Of a stretch of DNA of 59,164 nt, positions 2,947 to 56,995 are shown piece by piece. Source of the stretch: Candidatus Daviesbacteria bacterium RIFCSPHIGHO2_02_FULL_36_13. GTDB taxonomy: Bacteria; Patescibacteriota; Microgenomatia; Daviesbacterales; UBA10151. The notes under the pieces were generated by a model, which was not told the DNA's origin, ran no database searches, and saw only the letters and a program-made list of their open reading frames with translations. Each line of letters begins with the position of its first letter. Position 1 is the stretch's first letter. The position numbers and the translations under genes were made by a program. The stretch is taken from the NCBI GenBank assembly GCA_001777015.1, contig MFCV01000048.1, forward strand, positions 5,341 to 64,504. The letters are read 5' to 3'.

Positions 2947-2989
2947 TCCTTAATATTAAATTATGGGTAATGAATGGTCAATGGTGAGG

Positions 2990-2998
2990 TGGTATTAT
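2990..2998 (+). promoter_or_regulatory. Extended -10 promoter element TGgTATTAT, 6 nt upstream of ATG 3005 (leaderless-type arrangement)
   Basis: Read directly: tggtattat-tagaat-ATG. No Shine-Dalgarno sequence is possible in the gap. Confidence 0.5.
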
Positions 2999-3004
2999 TA
3001 GAAT

Positions 3005-4684
3005 ATGGTAAATGAACAAAGTTCTTCTATGAATAAAATATTTTCTTGGTTAATGAGTCATAAGGAGGTAGTAGTGCTTTTGGGATGTACAGTCCTTTTC
3101 CTACTGCTTATCTTTAAAGATCCGTTTTCGGAGAGAACTTTAATACCAAACTTTGAGCCGTATCCGGATACTCTATTTTACATAGTAAAACCATTAAATT
3201 TTCTAAAGGGTGAAGGCTTTAATTTTAGCAGAGAAGGGAGACTTGCCTACAATTTGACTCCACCTTTGTACTCTATAGCATTAATTCCTTTTTTTGCAAT
3301 AAATCCTGATCCCAGAATGGCATATTTTGCAAACATTTTTCTATCTTTAATTTCGGTAGGACTTTTTTTCTTAATTGTGAAAAAGATCACAAACAATATA
3401 TGGCTAACATGCTTAGTACTATTTTTGTACATTACCAACTACTTTTTGTATTTCATGCCAACTCTAGTAATGGCGGAAAATTTAATTCTTCCCTTATATT
3501 TAACGGCAGTATTTCTTTTAATAAGAAATAATACTCCCGCTTTTTTTATCCTCTTGGGAGTCCTTAGTGTTTGTATATATGCAACCAAGGGGGCTAATGT
3601 TCCTATTTCTGCAATGATTTTGATTTTATCAGCTATCAAAATAGTTATATCGCAATCTAAAAATACTCTCAAGATAAAATCCTTTTCGTATTTACTAGTT
3701 GGTTTTTCTGTATCCTTTATCCTTTATTCATTATTTTTTTATTACGTAACTAATTCCAATATTCTGGGGCCTCTATTGGAATATTTTGGACTAGCAAAGG
3801 AGGCAATAACTCCTAAGGCGGATGAAATTACAGCTGCTGCTTCTGCAGGTGGATGGATATCATTTAGTTATGCTAGTAAAAATTTTCCTTTATATTTAAG
3901 CTCTCTTCTTGGGGATTCCCAAAGATTTCTTTGGGACAACACCCCACTTGTTCCTAAGTATATCGCTTTCCTATCCCTGGCAGGACTTATCTTGGGGGTA
4001 ATTACAAAAAGATTCCGATTTTTAAGCGTTTCTTTAATTCTTATGATTGTAAGTTCTATCGGATTTTTACTTACCTTTTATGCTTTTGATGCAAGATATA
4101 TTTATATCGCTATACCGTCACTTTTAATTGGTTTTTCTATTCTTATCGCTTCCTTGTTTAATTTATTTAAGGCAGTAAAATACAAGAGGATTATTTTCTT
4201 AATGATTATATTATTTTTTGGTTTTTATGTTTTTAACAATGCTTTAAGAATTAAAAATCAAATTAGTCTAAATTTAAAATACGCTGAAACTCCATGGTAC
4301 TATATTTCTGTTTTAAAGCTTAATGAATACTTTACAGATGATAAAGTTATAGATGGAAAAAAACCCGTTGTGATTTCAGCTCTACCTCCTTTTTTGGTAG
4401 ATTTTTACTCTAATGGTAACTATACTTTACTACCGCTTTCGTACGAACAAGAGTTTAGAAGCGCAAAAGAAATAACATGGGGGCCTAATGATTATACGGA
4501 TCTGCCGAAATTGTATACAAAATATATAAAAGAAGGTTATGACGTTTATGTATCAAGGTATGGTTTAGGAAACGAGGTATATACAAATAGGGATTTTGAA
4601 ATCATCATGAAGGAATTTCAGTTAGATTTAGTTTGGCCAGGATGCTATGAACAATGTAATATATACACAGTTGGATTAAAATAA
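3005..4684 (+). CDS. Polytopic membrane protein with GT-C-like architecture
   Basis: 559 aa. Multi-helix N-terminal ~430 aa and a soluble C-terminal ~130 aa. Lies in the glycan locus. An alternative start at ATG 3029 (MNKIFSW) is possible. Confidence 0.5.
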   Translation: MVNEQSSSMNKIFSWLMSHKEVVVLLGCTVLFLLLIFKDPFSERTLIPNFEPYPDTLFYIVKPLNFLKGEGFNFSREGRLAYNLTPPLYSIALIPFFAINPDPRMAYFANIFLSLISVGLFFLIVKKITNNIWLTCLVLFLYITNYFLYFMPTLVMAENLILPLYLTAVFLLIRNNTPAFFILLGVLSVCIYATKGANVPISAMILILSAIKIVISQSKNTLKIKSFSYLLVGFSVSFILYSLFFYYVTNSNILGPLLEYFGLAKEAITPKADEITAAASAGGWISFSYASKNFPLYLSSLLGDSQRFLWDNTPLVPKYIAFLSLAGLILGVITKRFRFLSVSLILMIVSSIGFLLTFYAFDARYIYIAIPSLLIGFSILIASLFNLFKAVKYKRIIFLMIILFFGFYVFNNALRIKNQISLNLKYAETPWYYISVLKLNEYFTDDKVIDGKKPVVISALPPFLVDFYSNGNYTLLPLSYEQEFRSAKEITWGPNDYTDLPKLYTKYIKEGYDVYVSRYGLGNEVYTNRDFEIIMKEFQLDLVWPGCYEQCNIYTVGLK

Positions 4685-4696
4685 TATGATAAACAT

Positions 4697-5728
4697 ATGA
4701 GTGAACAAAGTTCTTTTGCAAATAAAATTTTAATTACTGGTGCGGGGGGGTACATAGGTTCCATAGCAACATCTGTGTTGCTTGACGAAGGATTTGAAAT
4801 TGTGGCGGTTGATAATTTCTCTACTGGTTACAGACAGCCTTTAGAAATTCTACAGAAAAAATATGGTGAAGAGAAACTGCGTTTTTATGATATAGATTTA
4901 ACAAAAGACGATATCTCGTCTATTTTTGATAAAGAGCAGGGGATAGATGCAGTAATTCACTATGCTGCACATTGTTTGGTAGATGAATCGATGAAGAATC
5001 CGCATAAGCATTTTTATAACAATATTTGCGGTACTTTAAATTTAATATCCTCAATGAATAAAGCTGGAGTTAAAAATCTAGTATTTTCCTCAACTTGTGC
5101 AGTTTATGGTCAATCAAAGTATATACCTATAGATGAAGATCATCCAAAGGAGCCACTGAGCCCTTATGGAGAATCGAAAAAAATATCTGAAGATATAATT
5201 ACTTGGTTCTCTAAACTAAAAGGATTAAATTTTGTCATTCTAAGATATTTTAATGTTTGTGGGGCATCTGATGATGGATTAATTGGTGATGCTAAAAAAC
5301 CGTCCCCTCATTTAGTTCAAAACACAGTAAGAGGAGCCTTGGGTATAGAACCATTCATCCTTACCTATCCGGAAGTTGATACAGAAGATAAAAGTCCAAT
5401 AAGGGATTATATTAATGTGGTCGATTTAAATTTAGCCCATAAAAAAGCAGTGGAGTATTTATTAAACGGGGGAGAAAGCGAGTTTATAAATTTAGGAACA
5501 GGCAAAGGAAATTCGGTATTAGAAATAATCAATATTGTCAAAAAAGTAACAGGAGTAGAATTTGAGGTATCAAGGGGAAATTTAAGGGAGGGGGATCCTG
5601 CTAGACTGGTGGCTTCAATAGAAAAAGCTAAAAGAATTCTGGATTGGGAACCAAAAAGAACAATAGAGGATTCTATTAATAGTTTAATTTCCTGGTACAA
5701 AAATAATCCCCAGGGTTGGAAGAAGTAA
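4697..5728 (+). CDS. galE: UDP-glucose 4-epimerase
   Basis: ILITGAGGYIGS Rossmann motif, SSTCAVYG, catalytic YGESK, 343 aa. Has an unusual ~8-aa N-terminal extension, MSEQSSFA. Confidence 0.9.
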   Translation: MSEQSSFANKILITGAGGYIGSIATSVLLDEGFEIVAVDNFSTGYRQPLEILQKKYGEEKLRFYDIDLTKDDISSIFDKEQGIDAVIHYAAHCLVDESMKNPHKHFYNNICGTLNLISSMNKAGVKNLVFSSTCAVYGQSKYIPIDEDHPKEPLSPYGESKKISEDIITWFSKLKGLNFVILRYFNVCGASDDGLIGDAKKPSPHLVQNTVRGALGIEPFILTYPEVDTEDKSPIRDYINVVDLNLAHKKAVEYLLNGGESEFINLGTGKGNSVLEIINIVKKVTGVEFEVSRGNLREGDPARLVASIEKAKRILDWEPKRTIEDSINSLISWYKNNPQGWKK

Positions 5729-6768
5729 TGAAGTTTGTTTTTTCCGTCTTTCTAATTTGGCGTCTGCTTCTATTTATAAGTACAGGTGAGTTTTCGCTTT
5801 CGTCTTGGGCTAATTTTGATGGTATTCATTATCTATCCATAGCTGCCAATGGCTATACCTTTGATGGAAGATTTCTACCCTTATACCCTTATTTAATAAA
5901 GATTTTTTCGACCCCCTTTAATTTTCCGGATATGTATCTTTACTCAGGTTTGTTTGTATCAAATATTTCTTTCCTGCTGTCTTTAATGCTTTTTTATAAA
6001 TTAGTAAAGGAGGATTATTCAGAAAAAGTAGCAAAAGAGTCATTAATTTGGATGTTAATTTTTCCTACTTCATTTTTCTTTGTCAGTGTATATTCGGAAA
6101 GCTTATTTTTGTTTCTAACCTTACTATCTTTCTACTTTGCTCAAAAAAGTAAATGGGTATTTGCATCTATTGCAGGGTTTTTCTTAGGTATAACAAGACT
6201 CACCGGAATGTTTATACTACCTTCATTAATTTATGAATTTCTTAAAAAAGAAAAATCTAATCCTCTTAAAATTTTTCCTCTATTTTTAATTCCGGCAGGA
6301 TTAATTTCTTTTGCGGTATTTTGTTTTTATAAATGGGGAGATGCACTTTACTTTATTAAAGCCCACGGCGATTTAGGCAATTCACGATCGGTAGATTCAG
6401 TGGTTTTTCCATTACAGACAGTATATCGGTATAGTAAAATACTATTTACAGTGCCTCCCGGTCAATTTGAGTATTGGATAGCTCTTTTAGAACTTAGTGT
6501 TTTTATAGCTGTTTCCTTTCTTATATATTTAGGATGGAAGAAGAAACTGAATCCCAGCTGGCTTATTTTTTCTTTGCTAACCTTTTTGCTGCCATCTTTT
6601 TCAGGAACTTTTTCTGGTTTGCCCAGATATGTAATTACAATTTTTCCAATTTTTATTGTTTTAGCATTGATTAAAAACCGTTTGTTTAAAATATCTTATG
6701 GGCTTATTTCACCTGTTTTACTACTTCTATTATTGGTACTTTTCTCAAGAGGTTATTTTGTTGCATAG
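5728..6768 (+). CDS. PIG-V/mannosyltransferase-like polytopic membrane protein (GT-C type)
   Basis: Motif WANFDGIHYLSIAANGY near the N-terminus; all-helical membrane protein. Start placed at the ATG overlapping the galE stop (TAATG); the track start, TTG 5716, is in frame. Paralog at 52191-53225. Confidence 0.65.
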   Translation: MKFVFSVFLIWRLLLFISTGEFSLSSWANFDGIHYLSIAANGYTFDGRFLPLYPYLIKIFSTPFNFPDMYLYSGLFVSNISFLLSLMLFYKLVKEDYSEKVAKESLIWMLIFPTSFFFVSVYSESLFLFLTLLSFYFAQKSKWVFASIAGFFLGITRLTGMFILPSLIYEFLKKEKSNPLKIFPLFLIPAGLISFAVFCFYKWGDALYFIKAHGDLGNSRSVDSVVFPLQTVYRYSKILFTVPPGQFEYWIALLELSVFIAVSFLIYLGWKKKLNPSWLIFSLLTFLLPSFSGTFSGLPRYVITIFPIFIVLALIKNRLFKISYGLISPVLLLLLLVLFSRGYFVA

Positions 6769-6777
6769 TAAGGTTAT

Positions 6778-8193
6778 ATGATTTTATTCGTTTTGTTTTT
6801 AGCCTTTGTTTTGAGATTTATTAATCTGGATCAAAGTTTATGGTTTGATGAAGCCATCAATGTGGTATATGCAAAGTCTAATGATTTTTGGTGGTTTGTA
6901 ACAAAGTATCCAATTGGTGATTTTCATCCTCCCTTATATTTTGCAGTTATCTGGCTCTGGGGACACATATTTTCTTTTGGAGAATTTGTTATTAGAATAC
7001 CTTCGGTATTATTTGGTATTGCAACTATATTTCTGACCTATTTAATAGGTAGAAAATTATTCTCAAAAAATATAGGATTAATTGCTGCGTTATTTTTATC
7101 TCTAGCTCCTTTGCATATTTATTATTCACAAGAAGCCAGGATGTATTCATTAGCTGCATTTTCAGCAGCTTTCTCAAGCTATTTTCTTTTAAAATTATTA
7201 GAAAAGGAAAAGTTTGCCCTTTTTGGATATTCTTTCTCTGTAGCTTTAGTTTTATATTCAGATTATCTTTCCTACCTTATTCTTCCTGCACATTTACTGT
7301 TTGTTTTTATTTATTACAAAAGTATATTCAATAAATATCTTTTGTCATTGTTTCTTGGGGTTTGTTCTATTATTCCTTGGCTGTTTGTTTTTCCAGGCCA
7401 GCTTAAAAGTGGAATTGAAAAATCCGCTATGATAGGCGGCTGGAGAGAGGTGGTAGGAGGATTGGGTGTTAAAGAGGTATTATTACTCCCAGTTAAAATT
7501 CTAATTGGTAGGATAACTTTTGAGAATAAATTAATATATGCAATCTTATTATTCCTAATATCCTTGCCGCATATAATTGGTTTTAAGAAAATACTAAGCT
7601 TTTTGAGTGAGAAAGTGAACTATCTTTTGTTATGGTTATTTATACCTGTAATTTCAGCACTGATACTTTCTTTGTTTATGCCAGTTTTTAGTTATTTTAG
7701 ATTACTTTTTATTCTCCCGGCGTTTTATATTCTTTTGGCTTTTGCTTTAGATAAATATAAACATAAGATAAAACTAATATTAATTACCTTAATAATATTT
7801 TTTGAAATTATTACTTCGGGTGTATATCTTCTAAATTCTCAGTTTCACCGTGAAGATTGGAGATCTGCTGTAAGTTTGATAAATAATAGAAGTAATATAC
7901 AAACACTTGTCTTACACAAAAATAGCGAGATACCAGCCCCATTTAAATACTACCAATTAAATTCCATTCAAAGTATAGCTGTTTTTAAGAAGATTCCGGT
8001 ACATTCCTCAAGTGATTTCGTTAATTTGGAGGAAACTTTAATGCAATTTAATAAAATTTTTATCTTTAATTATTTAGTGGATATTACAGACCCAAACAGA
8101 GTTTTAGAAAAAGAAATAGAAAGACTTGGATTCAAAAAGATTAAAGATTATGATTTTAGAGGAGTAGGATTTATTTATGAATTTGAAAAGTAG
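6778..8193 (+). CDS. GT39/ArnT/PMT-like membrane glycosyltransferase (GT-C)
   Basis: First-loop motif LWFDEAINVVYA, YSQEARMY, many TM helices, 471 aa. Confidence 0.65.
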   Translation: MILFVLFLAFVLRFINLDQSLWFDEAINVVYAKSNDFWWFVTKYPIGDFHPPLYFAVIWLWGHIFSFGEFVIRIPSVLFGIATIFLTYLIGRKLFSKNIGLIAALFLSLAPLHIYYSQEARMYSLAAFSAAFSSYFLLKLLEKEKFALFGYSFSVALVLYSDYLSYLILPAHLLFVFIYYKSIFNKYLLSLFLGVCSIIPWLFVFPGQLKSGIEKSAMIGGWREVVGGLGVKEVLLLPVKILIGRITFENKLIYAILLFLISLPHIIGFKKILSFLSEKVNYLLLWLFIPVISALILSLFMPVFSYFRLLFILPAFYILLAFALDKYKHKIKLILITLIIFFEIITSGVYLLNSQFHREDWRSAVSLINNRSNIQTLVLHKNSEIPAPFKYYQLNSIQSIAVFKKIPVHSSSDFVNLEETLMQFNKIFIFNYLVDITDPNRVLEKEIERLGFKKIKDYDFRGVGFIYEFEK

Positions 8194-25612: not shown

Positions 25613-26233
25613 ATGAGAGGGTTTAAGACAGAAGGCATTATTCTTAAGAGAAAAAATTTTGGGGAAGCTGATAGGATTTTAACTGTATTTACTTTACAAA
25701 GAGGTAAAATTTCTATTGTTGCCAAAGGAGTCAGAAGAATTACTTCCCGCCGTGCTGGGAATGTTGAACTTCTAAATAGAGTTATCCTATTTTTATATCA
25801 GGGAAGAGGAATGCCTATTTTAACTGAAGCAGAAGGCATAGAGAATTTTGAAAAACTAAAATCAGATCTAACTTTATCCACAGTGGCCTTTCATATTATC
25901 GAACTAATAGATAAATTAACTGCAGAGAATCAGGAGAATAGACTTCTTTATGAGCATTTAGTAAATTGTTTAAAGAGACTGGAAAGAAATCCAAGACAAA
26001 TTTTTATTAGAGCATTTGAGGCAAAGATTTTAACAAACTTAGGATTTGCAGATTTTAAAGATCCTTTAATTGTGAAATTAGTTAATTCAAACTGGGATGA
26101 AATTGAGAAGATTGAGATAGATAAAAAACAGGCTCTGGAACTTGAGAGGGTATTAAGATATCATTTAGAAAGAACCATTGAGGGTCAATTGAAGTCTAGG
26201 AGATTGCTTCGCTTCGCTCGCAGTGACGACTAA
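25613..26233 (+). CDS. recO: DNA repair protein RecO
   Basis: N-terminal OB-fold signature TEGIILKRKNFGEADRILTVFT. ~200 aa. The C-terminal tail LLRFARSDD is encoded by a GC-rich repeat. Confidence 0.8.
   Translation: MRGFKTEGIILKRKNFGEADRILTVFTLQRGKISIVAKGVRRITSRRAGNVELLNRVILFLYQGRGMPILTEAEGIENFEKLKSDLTLSTVAFHIIELIDKLTAENQENRLLYEHLVNCLKRLERNPRQIFIRAFEAKILTNLGFADFKDPLIVKLVNSNWDEIEKIEIDKKQALELERVLRYHLERTIEGQLKSRRLLRFARSDD
26205..26230 (+). repeat. GC-rich repeat half-site tgcttcgcttcgctcgcagtgacgac (same family as 27579-27601 and 51588-51664)
   Basis: Direct comparison with 27579-27601 (tgcttcgcacttcgtgctcgcag) and with the right arm of the 51588-51664 palindrome (cacttcgtggcctcgcaatgacg). 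Confidence 0.6.
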
Positions 26234-27605: not shown

Positions 27606-28502
27606 TTGCCTTTTGATATGAATCAAAACGTGAAACTGCTTTTGACAGTCCACAAAAAGACTGTCATTTTAGTTGGAGTCTTATTTTTACTTCTTTTTGG
27701 GGGCTACTTTGTTTTCCAAAATTATTCCAGCAAAGGGCCTATTGAAGAAGTTGATCTAAACTTTGATGCAGAAGGTCCTTATGCTCTCCTATCCCCAAGA
27801 CGTGATGGAAATGCTTTAGTTCTAACTGTCAAAAGAACCTCTTCTTATGATGCGATCTCCTATGATTTAGCTTATACCAGCAATGTTGATGAGACTATAG
27901 TTACAGGCAGAAAGATCTCTGAGGATGGAGAAGAAGGGGCGGCAGGCAGTATAGACAGGGGAGTATCAGGGACAATCAATACAGAAGATAAAAAAGGAGA
28001 ATATGAACAAGAAGTTTTATTTGGAACTTGTTCTAAGAATGTTTGTAAATATGATCAGGGTGTAGAGAATGGAACTTTGACACTACATATCACAAAAGGC
28101 AAGAAAGTATATAGGATGATTACCCAGTGGCATTTGCAGAAGCCTGATGTGGCTTTGGGCAAACTGACATCTGGAGATGGACATTTAATCTACACTACTT
28201 CTGCTGATAGGCAAACACTCTCCAATGTTGGATTTTCTATAATTAATGACTTAACAGGGGTGCCTAAGCTGCCTTCAGGCAAAATTATTTCTGGTAAAGT
28301 TTATTCTTTAAATGTTCCTTTAGCTAAATCTCTGCCAGGGGGAGATATAAGCTTAGAATTGGCGGAAAATCCAGGAGATGGAGCTAAACTTTATAGGCAT
28401 AATGGAAATGATTGGACAGAGCTAGATACTAAAGTTGAAGGCTCAAAGTTTTCTGCTACGGCAGATGGTGCAGGCATCTTTGCAGTGTTAGTTGGGAAGT
28501 AG
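27606..28502 (+). CDS. Hypothetical membrane-anchored extracytoplasmic protein
   Basis: ORF with one N-terminal TM (VILVGVLFLLLFGGYFVF) and a beta-rich-looking ectodomain. Start is either TTG 27606 or ATG 27618. Confidence 0.5.
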   Translation: MPFDMNQNVKLLLTVHKKTVILVGVLFLLLFGGYFVFQNYSSKGPIEEVDLNFDAEGPYALLSPRRDGNALVLTVKRTSSYDAISYDLAYTSNVDETIVTGRKISEDGEEGAAGSIDRGVSGTINTEDKKGEYEQEVLFGTCSKNVCKYDQGVENGTLTLHITKGKKVYRMITQWHLQKPDVALGKLTSGDGHLIYTTSADRQTLSNVGFSIINDLTGVPKLPSGKIISGKVYSLNVPLAKSLPGGDISLELAENPGDGAKLYRHNGNDWTELDTKVEGSKFSATADGAGIFAVLVGK

Positions 28503-28640
28503 CTCATTACGGCAAAAAGCACCCTTCGGCTAGTAAATCTCAAACATACAGGTTATCTCTAGCCTCATTGTGGGAAAATTTGTGATTTAGTACTGCACAC
28601 AAATTTTCTAACTGCTTTTGTGCTCGTAATTTCGCTACTT
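28501..28640 (+). ncRNA. Candidate structured RNA / conserved intergenic element, copy A
   Basis: Gapless ~82% identical (hand count 115/140) to 42775-42914. Three helices: P1 28506-28511/28625-28630, P2 28528-28533/28559-28564, P3 28574-28584/28598-28608. All are preserved in the other copy, with 4 compensatory pair changes. Confidence 0.5.
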
Positions 28641-28684
28641 CTTAGAAGTTTTTCCTCAAAATTCCCTCTTGACAAGACATTGTT

Positions 28685-28726
28685 AAATGGCGGAAAATGG
28701 TTATAGATGGTGAAATAAGGTGAAAA
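28685..28726 (+). promoter_or_regulatory. Four 10-bp-phased direct repeats (aaATGGcgga aaATGGttat agATGGtgaa atAAGGtgaa): putative MraZ operator
   Basis: The GG of each box ends at 28690, 28700, 28710 and 28720, 42-77 nt upstream of the mraZ ATG. A TTGACA hexamer lies at 28669-28674. Confidence 0.5.
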
Positions 28727-28731
28727 CCTAG

Positions 28732-28747
28732 TAATATTCTGCCCAGA
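28732..28747 (+). promoter_or_regulatory. Putative mraZ -10 region (taatatt) followed by CTGCCCA, shared with the ftsZ promoter
   Basis: atattctgcccaga at 28734-28747 is identical to 41590-41603, and similarity continues through aga. Confidence 0.4.
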
Positions 28748-41610: not shown

Positions 41611-42768
41611 ATGCTCATAAAACCTGATGTACAAAAATTTGCAAAGATTAAAGTTGTAGGTTTGGGTGGTGGTGGTTCTAATTCCTTAAACTCCATGATA
41701 CTCTTGCAGCAAATCCAGGGTGTAGAATTTGTGGCGATTAATACAGATGCTCAGGCTTTAATGAATAATCAGTCTCCAACAAAAGTCCAAATTGGCGAGC
41801 AATTAACACGCGGACTAGGTTCTGGAGGAGATCCTGAAATTGGCAAGCAGGCTGCTGAGGAATCAACTCAGAAATTGGAAGATGTTTTAGGGGATGCTGA
41901 TATGGTCTTTCTAACAGCTGGGATGGGTGGAGGAACAGGAACCGGTTCAATCCCTGTTGTTGCACAAGTTGCTAAAAATGCAGGAGCATTAACAGTGGCT
42001 GTTGTTACCAAGCCTTTTGCTTTTGAAGGAACAAGAAGAATGGTGGTTGCAGAAGATGGAATTGAGAAGCTTAAGGATAAGGTTGATGCCTTAATTATTA
42101 TTCCAAATCAAAGGCTTTTAGAAACTGTAGAAAAAAATATGACTTTGCAGGAAGCTTTTAGATTGGCTGACTCAGTTTTGGGACAAGGAGTTCAGGGAAT
42201 TTCTGATCTTATTACTATGCCGGGACTTATTAATGTTGATTTTGCTGATGTTAAAACAATCATGAGTAATGCAGGATCAGCATTGATGGGTATTGGGGTT
42301 GCAGGGGGAGATAACAGGGCTGCAGCAGCTGCCAGAATGGCTATTGCCTCACCTTTACTTGAAGTTTCAATAGAAGGAGCCAAAGGAGTCCTTTTCAATA
42401 TTGTTGGAGGACCTGATCTTTCTATGACAGAAGTTAATGAGGCTGCTCAAATTATTGCTCAGGCTGCTGATCCTGATGCTAATATAATCTTTGGTGCTAC
42501 CATTAAAGAAGATCAGCTTGATCAAATTAAAATTTCTGTTATAGCTACGGGATTTGATGAGACAAGAAGAAGGCTGAGGGAATATATTGGTACTGGGATA
42601 GGATCATCTTCAATTCAAAATCAACCTCAGTCTAGTGCTTGGGCTCCTGAAGAAAAAGAAGAAGCCCCTGTTCAAGCTACTCAGGAACCTGAGAGAGCTG
42701 AGGAAGAGATCATAAAGGAAGAAGACGAAGATTTAGAAATCCCAGCATTTCTCCGCGGCAACAGATAA
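41611..42768 (+). CDS. ftsZ: Cell division protein FtsZ
   Basis: [17 protein letters not shown] tubulin signature, C-terminal DLEIPAFLR peptide. Confidence 0.95.
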
Positions 42769-42774
42769 AGTTGT

Positions 42775-42914
42775 AGCTCGTCACAGTAAAAAGTACCATT
42801 CGGCTAGTATTCCTGTAACATTTAGTTTATTTCTAGCCTCATTGTGGGAAAATTTTTGCTTTAGTACTACACAAAAATTTTCTAACTGCTTTTATACTTG
42901 TGACTTCGCTACTC
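42775..42914 (+). ncRNA. Candidate structured RNA / conserved intergenic element, copy B
   Basis: Homolog of 28501-28640. P1 42780-42785 gtcaca / 42899-42904 tgtgac. P2 42802-42807/42833-42838. P3 42848-42858/42872-42882. Confidence 0.5.
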
Positions 42915-42924
42915 CTAAATAATA

Positions 42925-54767: not shown

Positions 54768-54842
54768 TGGAGCGGTGGACCGGACTTGAACCGGCGACCT
54801 TCTCCTTGGGAAGGAGACATTCTACCGCTGAACTACCACCGC
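54768..54842 (-). tRNA. tRNA-Gly (anticodon CCC), CCA encoded
   Basis: Hand-folded cloverleaf of gcggtggtagttcagcggtagaatgtctccttcccaaggagaaggtcgccggttcaagtccggtccaccgctcca. Anticodon loop ttCCCaa. Confidence 0.9.
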
Positions 54843-55254: not shown

Positions 55255-55326
55255 GCCGGCTTAGCTCAGCGGTAGAGCAGCTGTATCGTAAACAGCGGGT
55301 CACTGGTTCAATTCCAGTAGTCGGCT
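55255..55326 (+). tRNA. tRNA-Thr (anticodon CGU), CCA not encoded
   Basis: Hand-folded cloverleaf of gccggcttagctcagcggtagagcagctgtatcgtaaacagcgggtcactggttcaattccagtagtcggct. Anticodon loop atCGTaa. Confidence 0.9.
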
Positions 55327-56922: not shown

Positions 56923-56995
56923 GGGACCGTAGTGAACCGGTTATCACGTCTCCCTGTCACGGAGAAGACAGCGGGTTCAATTCCCGTCGGTCCCG
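56923..56995 (+). tRNA. tRNA-Asp (anticodon GUC), CCA not encoded
   Basis: Hand-folded cloverleaf of gggaccgtagtgaaccggttatcacgtctccctgtcacggagaagacagcgggttcaattcccgtcggtcccg. Anticodon loop ctGTCac. Confidence 0.9.

Follow-up and report, generated by a model that had tools for sequence, protein, structure and literature searches.

The window analysed here is a stretch of 59,164 nucleotides on contig MFCV01000048.1 of Candidatus Daviesbacteria bacterium RIFCSPHIGHO2_02_FULL_36_13, a member of the Candidate Phyla Radiation (CPR; Patescibacteria), and it contains two copies of a branched, palindromic intergenic element that is the subject of this report. Homologues of its FtsW and PolA likewise point to Candidatus Daviesbacteria (CPR/Microgenomates), and ENA sample names give groundwater metagenome as the source. 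Copy A (28499-28642, plus strand) lies between the stop of a hypothetical gene (27606-28502) and the mraZ promoter, and its 5' end contains the TAG stop codon of that gene (28500-28502, plus strand). Copy B (42773-42916, plus strand) lies between the ftsZ stop (42766-42768) and the ileS start (42941), beginning 4 nt past the former and ending 24 nt ahead of the latter. Both copies have the same orientation, at a distance of 14,274 nt, and as direct repeats they enclose the entire division and cell-wall (dcw) cluster, from mraZ to ftsZ. They align without gaps, with 119 of 144 positions identical; an earlier note on this DNA, made from the sequence alone, had drawn the pair slightly shorter (28501-28640 versus 42775-42914) and counted 115 matches in 140 positions, a count that our alignment reproduces. 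A 23-mer from the repeat core has only two occurrences, in copies A and B, with none expected by chance. The mraZ promoter-like site (28669-28698, plus strand; TTGACA, 18 nt, GAAAAT, then GGTGAA-type boxes) is located 3' of copy A and outside the repeat.

Both copies fold stably. Copy A reaches -48.9 kcal/mol (z -6.1) and copy B -38.8 kcal/mol (z -4.2), and in neither case did any of 200 shuffled sequences fold as well. In the common architecture, an interrupted closing stem of ~25 bp, formed by helices P0 and P1, encloses a three-way junction from which a short hairpin (P2) and a long hairpin (P3) emerge. The closing stem of copy A consists of GUAGC/GCUAC, a UC/UUC internal loop, AUUACG/CGUAAU, GCA/UGC and AAAAGCA/UGCUUUU, with two bulges. 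The P0 5' arm (GUAGC, 28499-28503, plus strand) pairs with 28634-28638 (GCUAC), the equivalent arms of copy B being 42773-42777 and 42908-42912. The P1 5' arm (AUUACG-GCA-AAAAGCA, 28506-28521, plus strand) pairs with 28613-28630 (UGCUUUU-g-UGC-u-CGUAAU), corresponding to 42780-42795 and 42887-42904 in copy B. P2 is the hairpin GGCUAG...CUAGCC with a variable loop (28528-28564, plus strand; 42802-42838 in copy B), and P3 is a hairpin of 14 pairs, GU-GGAAAAUUUGUG / CACAAAUUUUCU-AC (28570-28612, plus strand; 42844-42886 in copy B). An extra helix between CCAU in the junction segment J1/2 and GUGG in J2/3 is predicted in copy B only and is unsupported by divergent copies of the element.

The two copies differ at 25 positions. 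Ten of these make five fully compensated pairs: three in the outer part of P1, where attacg/cgtaat (28506-28511 / 28625-28630) is replaced by gtcaca/tgtgac (42780-42785 / 42899-42904), one in the GCA/UGC segment, and one in P3, a single G-C to U-A swap. There is also one one-sided change, C to U, which yields a G-U pair in P1, bringing the changes in this helix to four compensated pairs and one G-U pair. The remaining differences fall in loops, bulges or a mini-hairpin in the P2 loop that is unique to copy A, and none breaks a conserved helix. The earlier note had recognised the three outer P1 pairs and the P3 swap, and rightly stated that no helix is disrupted; the compensation that it described is real, but it counted four pairs (8 of the 25 differences), having missed the GCA/UGC segment. 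Its closing stem, drawn as the six attacg/cgtaat pairs, is likewise real but longer, extending through GUAGC/GCUAC, GCA/UGC and AAAAGCA/UGCUUUU, and its P3 has 14 pairs instead of 11.

The element is not confined to the window. When JGI metagenome contigs were scanned for an exact word (an 18-mer), six true homologues with 78-87% identity emerged amid chance matches, and a covariance model built from those homologues recovered more divergent copies on the same contigs and on contigs fetched via PolA homologues. Copy A scores 165.5 bits (model R1) and 157.8 bits (model R2) against such models, and copy B scores 175.2 bits. Altogether there are 14 distinct copies, 125-160 nt long, at 12 sites in at least five Candidatus Daviesbacteria genomes, and the repeat family is restricted, as far as sampled, to a clade of groundwater Candidatus Daviesbacteria. 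Besides the two window sites (hypothetical gene to mraZ; ftsZ to ileS), copies lie between infB and the next gene (L029, the same as L033), between mltG/yceG and the riboflavin kinase gene (L037), between the 23S and 5S rRNA genes (L038 and L041, orthologous), between a 262-aa gene and a glycosyltransferase gene (L036c and L073c, orthologous), between ftsH and an ABC transporter gene (L073a), and between an MFS gene and an SMC-like gene (L073d). Two more follow polA, in one case with the next gene convergent (L036a) and in the other at a contig end (L081), and the last two are inside polA, one sense (L036b) and one antisense (L076). Copies in one genome are no more alike than copies across genomes. 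Contigs with an identical MraZ, and thus of strain level, carry a copy A that is 100% identical, which is uninformative because the flanks are equally identical (99-100%).

The family as a whole covaries in all four helices, which supports a structure under selection. In the 14-copy alignment, which was fitted to the covariance model, 94.9% of cells are paired, against 40-45% when the partners are slid by 1-3 columns; double changes occur at 28 of the 37 pairs, and none of 500 shuffles matches the covariation score. A 12-copy alignment gave the same outcome. Moreover, a structure-blind MAFFT alignment of seven close copies has 8 pairs with double changes, again with 0 of 500 shuffles as good. 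The extra homologues thus bear out the pairing that the earlier note had proposed from two copies. Between subfamilies the pairwise identity drops as low as 44-65%, with the fold still kept, and every copy folded alone regains the closing stem.

Each helix contributes to this signal. P0 covaries as GUAGC/GCUAC, GGAGC/GCUCC, GUCGC/GCGAC and GCCG/CGGC, and P1, with AUUACG, GUCACA and UAUGA each facing its complement, has double changes at 10 of 15 pairs. P3 is wholly replaced yet paired in divergent copies, with double changes at 13 of its 14 pairs. In P2, the family as a whole retains just the four basal pairs, GGCU/AGCC, which covary as GGC/GCC, GAC/GUC, GCA/UGC and GGU/ACC; of the six pairs originally proposed for this hairpin, the two distal ones are broken in L037, L041, L038, L029 and L036. 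Although P2 and P3, the peripheral stems, differ in length among copies, the unpaired junction bases ACC.UUCG, CUCA.U.UGG and AA.UGCUUU are invariant, and the asymmetric UC/UUC internal loop and the bulges are kept in all copies.

At each of the ten intergenic sites, the element runs in the same direction as the gene upstream of it (two-sided p = 0.002), and the plus strand is favoured through this co-orientation. Seven of the ten begin at most 5 nt from the upstream stop codon, and three sites (window A, L036c/L073c and L081) provide the upstream TAG themselves. At the other end, the GC-rich P0 is followed in most intergenic copies by pyrimidine- or U-rich bases (UUUU, UUUC or UUCU), with at least three U in the 5 nt after the element in 7 of 11 intergenic copy sequences.

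Comparison with relatives reveals that both window copies are insertions, because related genomes lack the element at both sites. Three relatives (L021-L023; FtsW 76-77% identical) have the same gene order as the window without the element, and the covariance models found no match in 62 kb of these genomes. In L021 and L022, ftsZ and ileS are 18 nt apart and the gap ahead of mraZ spans ~105 nt; the window gaps minus 144 nt each are close to these lengths, and the mraZ promoter block is conserved in the relatives without the repeat. Further empty sites are found in L073 and L076 at the 3' end of polA and in L082 at the 3' end of ftsH. No target-site duplication is seen at 13 boundaries, the empty sites being too diverged for base-level mapping, and the left flanks are merely A-rich and the right ones pyrimidine-rich. 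In 9 of 14 copies the terminal dinucleotides fit a base pair and in 5 of 14 a direct repeat, and a model of TA or target-site duplication was rejected since these dinucleotides covary as pairs. As for the route by which the element might spread, neither a target duplication nor a partner gene was found.

Once resident, a copy can be strongly conserved. The orthologous copies L036c and L073c are identical at 113 of 115 positions, whereas third codon positions of the adjacent gene are 84.7% identical and the downstream gene itself is 75.6% identical (Fisher p = 3e-5); the resident copy is therefore more conserved than neighbouring synonymous sites. Similarly, in L038 versus L041 the element and its short flanks form a conserved island in an otherwise unalignable 23S-5S spacer.

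Two copies lie within the polA coding sequence, in the linker between the 5'-nuclease and polymerase domains, which ranges from ~4 to 60 residues across Daviesbacteria. L036b (L036 5838-5998, minus strand) encodes PolA residues 287-340, between the invariant R285 and L345, in an intact open reading frame (ORF); of its frames, the sense frame alone is open. The L076 copy (2979-3137, minus strand) occupies the same linker antisense to polA and leaves the 771-aa ORF intact, the PolA proteins being 80% identical. Both coding copies have a higher GC content and no U-run downstream, and beyond the closing stem their folding is weak (z -2.0 and -1.8); the antisense L076 copy nonetheless retains this stem. 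The polA stop is also occupied in two genomes, by copies of different subfamilies (L036a versus L081, 70% identical). The recurrent occupation of the polA stop and linker, the latter in both orientations, points to repeated insertion or exchange.

The PolA linker and a second loop near the C terminus (protein alignment columns ~322-385 and ~727-765) are highly variable in length in Daviesbacteria, and both appear to be permissive sites that carry palindromic repeats in frame. In L036, polA is present as two overlapping ORFs (4584-5291 and 5260-6858, minus strand; 532 and 235 aa), whereas relatives have one gene of 743-771 aa; the split is probably a sequencing or assembly frameshift. The region downstream of polA is a variable hotspot (L073 12289-12606, L036 4150-4580, L075 11068-12111): it holds a 105-aa gene in L073, L075 and L076 and the repeat plus unrelated sequence in L036, and in L075 an additional 78-aa ORF occupies the position at which L073 has, on the opposite strand, a 301-aa gene.

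Database searches did not connect the element with any known family. Scanned against Rfam 15, the two copies gave nothing meaningful even at E<=10, and at the gathering score the only matches in the window were three tRNA genes (54771-54842, minus strand; 55255-55326, plus strand; 56923-56995, plus strand); the six homologous loci gave 5S and LSU rRNA only. In line with the earlier note, which had recognised no tRNA, terminator or riboswitch class, neither a tRNA or riboswitch nor a terminator consensus was matched. The plasmid and phage collections had no blastn match, and in viral contigs one 18-mer had 0 matches and a second, AT-rich 18-mer had 29, none of them confirmed by the covariance model. 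A protein search with translations of the canonical copy in sense and antisense frames yielded no candidate for an ORF running through copies, and a small ORF on either strand of the element is excluded by stops and 1-nt indels. No transposase, HUH enzyme, recombinase or integrase is present in the neighbourhood tables examined, and in the literature we found no comparable repeat family, MITE (miniature inverted-repeat transposable element) or structured RNA described for CPR/Patescibacteria. Two more specific candidates were discarded. A T-box, suggested by the position of copy B ahead of ileS, disagrees with the lack of an Rfam match and with the unrelated contexts of the other copies, and the template or variable repeat of a diversity-generating retroelement is at odds with differences between copies that are, by eye, compensatory and not adenine-specific.

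Bacterial repeats nevertheless offer several parallels. REP and REPIN sequences are hairpin repeats without target duplication, in which pairing rather than sequence is maintained, and they are mobilised by RAYT transposases. The Daviesbacteria repeat likewise forms hairpins, lacks target duplication and keeps its pairing. However, of the copies found here, the two in the window and L076 alone have the GTAG end that is conserved in REPs (elsewhere GGAG, GUCG or GCCG), and on this ground membership in the REP/REPIN class was rejected. In addition, the unit is a branched 145-nt structure and not a doublet of ~25-nt REPs, and no RAYT-like gene occurs in the fetched neighbourhoods, to which that search was confined. 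The element resembles SPRITE and intrinsic terminators in its position between a stop and the next promoter, its orientation with transcription, its GC-rich basal stem and the short U or pyrimidine run, but it is branched and far longer, its U-run is weak or missing in some copies, and a consensus scan was negative. With regard to the classical definition of a MITE, it is short, non-coding, multi-copy and polymorphic in insertion, whereas its ends, though inverted, vary in sequence with compensation and no target-site duplication accompanies them, on which grounds it was not classed as a classical MITE.

One close precedent is bcr1 of the Bacillus cereus group, a transcribed repeat of ~155 bp whose RNA fold is kept by compensatory changes (PMC3184786). 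The two share a similar size, a dispersed distribution that is not conserved between relatives, and a compensated fold (PMC3184786). They differ in that bcr1 has 5-bp flanking direct repeats, of which none is seen here, belongs to another phylum and has no known sequence similarity to the Daviesbacteria repeat, whose fold is a three-way junction with invariant junction bases. The bcr1 example means that covariation does not exclude a repeat element, and it invalidates the proposal of the earlier note that MITE ends would conserve sequence and not pairing (PMC3184786). ERIC and Correia MITEs are intergenic imperfect palindromes of ~105-160 bp, often 3' of genes, co-transcribed and affecting mRNA processing or stability (PMC3184786), although they have conserved terminal inverted repeats and TA flanks, where the Daviesbacteria ends covary and show no consistent TA duplication. 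Rickettsia palindromic elements (RPEs) are ~105-146 bp long and found both between genes and in frame within them (PMC3184786), the latter being paralleled by the two in-frame PolA copies here; in contrast, the Daviesbacteria copies are mostly intergenic, strictly co-oriented with the upstream gene and carried by an unrelated host, and RPE is compared by function and architecture only. More generally, bacterial repeats at 3' ends are co-transcribed and some affect mRNA stability, according to the same review (PMC3184786).

The empty orthologous sites, the unrelated contexts and the two in-frame polA copies suit a mobile-type interspersed element better than a dedicated RNA gene. Of the earlier proposal of a novel structured RNA, the conserved and covarying fold, now with 14 copies, has thus been upheld, but its carriers make up a dispersed repeat family and are probably no stand-alone RNA genes. 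We interpret it as a previously undescribed family of structured interspersed repeats, similar to ERIC, bcr1 and RPE, that is probably co-transcribed and, we infer, acts as a 3'-end terminator or stabiliser of the upstream message, an interpretation for which our belief and our doubt are about equal. The proposed role at 3' ends draws on the position between stop codon and promoter, the co-orientation, the GC-rich stem with its U or pyrimidine run, the conservation of the resident copy and the loss of these features in the coding copies. In such a scheme, the element would be transcribed along with the upstream gene as the 3' end of its message, and the folded form could act as a branched terminator-like structure and/or as an exonuclease barrier and RNase III substrate. 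This would insulate transcription units from one another, in the window keeping apart the hypothetical gene and the mraZ promoter, and likewise the dcw operon and ileS. A more elaborate version, which strikes us as unlikely, is that the repeat is a domesticated mobile three-way-junction RNA, particular to these ultra-small bacteria, whose invariant junction bases bind a host factor or form a tertiary fold, so that it sets and insulates the 3' ends of mRNA and rRNA as a novel kind of portable terminator or processing signal and spreads by virtue of its shape and not its sequence.

Several observations weigh against a role in RNA 3' ends. The minus strands of copies A and B fold equally well (-49.0 and -37.9 kcal/mol), so folding energy gives no choice of strand. 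Neither do wobble pairs: the earlier note had taken G-T wobbles to favour the plus strand, but the tally of 13 G-U against 7 A-C cells, or ~7 against 6 independent events, carries no strand signal. Co-orientation with upstream genes is confounded with the direction of replication, and an orientation bias at the level of single-stranded DNA would be indistinguishable from one in RNA. The U-run is short and is absent in some copies (B, UCCUAAAU; L029, CAUAAAUA), and a simple consensus terminator scan found nothing at copy A or B. A DNA-level constraint or a recent insertion explains the antisense coding copy no less well than an RNA function does. The family sampling is small, at 14 copies, and conservation of the 18-mer in the six copies from the word scan exists by construction because they were found through it, the copies found by the covariance model being exempt. 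Density in the window genome is low, with two copies in about 76 kb, no further copy occurring in the ~17 kb past the window ends. Finally, an exact canonical 18-mer scan of 185,579 GTDB species representatives gave 10 matches of only 18-19 nt in unrelated taxa, which are due to chance.

The main rival is that the repeat is purely selfish, a non-autonomous mobile element of the MITE, RPE or REPIN kind which requires its hairpin to be mobilised, in the form of single-stranded or cruciform DNA that a structure-specific enzyme recognises, without a host role. Covariation would then reflect the survival of mobilisable lineages, and the two views are not exclusive. We regard a purely selfish nature as possible but doubtful. 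It would account for the varying presence between relatives, for the unrelated contexts, for the equal folding of both strands with no G-U/A-C asymmetry, and for the occupation of the polA stop by different subfamilies, copies within a genome being no closer than copies between genomes; the two in-frame PolA linker copies in opposite orientations are as reported for RPE (PMC3184786). It accounts less well for the 13 boundaries without target-site duplication and the pair-like terminal dinucleotides, and the variable terminal sequence implies that there is no fixed end for a transposase to bind. The neighbourhood tables are likewise without a transposase, HUH enzyme or recombinase, the resident copy is conserved well above neutral sites, unlike what junk DNA would be, and unpaired nucleotides and asymmetric loops remain invariant at 44-65% identity. 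Another rival, the novel structured RNA of the earlier note, would make the copies functional RNAs in their own right, which act in trans or bind a protein or ligand and are multi-copy by chance. Strong covariation in four helices, invariant junction and loop bases next to variable peripheral P2 and P3 (typical of functional RNAs), and the lack of an Rfam match all accord with this, but we think it rather improbable: a promoter scan found no promoter-like site ahead of either window copy, only the mraZ site downstream of A; 7 of the 10 intergenic sites start at or inside the upstream stop; and the element is absent from the same loci in close relatives, occurs as in-frame linker copies, one of them antisense, and has no consistently associated gene.

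Two further explanations were considered. Structure that is more conserved than sequence is a hallmark of attC sites, and a DNA recombination site read as a folded strand, attC-like or Xer/dif-like, could in principle turn the direct repeats that flank exactly mraZ to ftsZ into the borders of a dcw cassette. The ends of the element, (A)GNNGCUC ... UUCGCNNC(U), however, lack the RYYYAAC and GTTRRRY cores, by which attC was rejected; relatives that lack the element have a syntenic dcw cluster, the other copies are solitary, and there is no integrase in the neighbourhoods, making this explanation extremely unlikely. It is scarcely more credible that compensation is a mutational by-product of template switching in a quasi-palindrome, with no selection on structure. 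Template-switch correction of quasi-palindromes is an established mechanism and gives simultaneous complementary changes like the five between A and B. Nevertheless, it tends toward perfect palindromes, whereas here the same asymmetric loop and bulges are kept, the junction bases are invariant and the three-way junction is not a simple palindrome.

Whichever force maintains them, these copies indicate that compact CPR/Patescibacteria genomes, too, carry structure-conserving interspersed repeats, at operon boundaries, in an rRNA spacer and in the linker of a DNA polymerase. Their clean covariation makes them a good model for asking whether a repeat is kept up for the host, through 3'-end formation or insulation where intergenic space is scant, or for its own spread. 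In practical terms, such repeats are a source of false calls of novel non-coding RNAs and of assembly breaks in CPR metagenomes, and the covariance model could be used to annotate them.

The surroundings of the copies show some additional features. Directly after copy A and overlapping its last bases, a small hairpin (ACUUC-UUA-GAAGU, window 28637-28655) is succeeded by UUUUCC. This feature, weakly terminator-like, competes with an extended P0 pairing, GGAAGUAGC/GCUACUUCU, and has no equivalent at copy B. Further downstream, at window 28669-28740, repeated GGTGAA/GGCGGA boxes, probably MraZ operator repeats, come after the mraZ promoter block (TTGACA ... TAAAAT-like), and this arrangement is kept in the relatives L021 and L022. 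A second, much smaller palindromic repeat, CAYTGCGAGCGAAGCGAAGCAATC, is found at window 26202-26225 (minus strand), at the junction of recO and a class-II tRNA-synthetase gene, and at L037 812-835 (minus strand), just upstream of the large element; the window occurrence has 1 mismatch, with 0 expected by chance. Small palindromic repeats, either this one or similar ones, may be the origin of peptide signatures seen in ORFs of L029 and in PolA linkers of other Daviesbacteria. In L038 and L041, what reads as a separate 5S promoter (TTGATA, 17 nt, TATACT) lies downstream of the repeat. Lastly, a LAGLIDADG-type ORF (297-785) sits within the LSU rRNA match of the L038 23S rRNA gene (1-1173) and presumably encodes an rRNA intron homing endonuclease, as is common in CPR.

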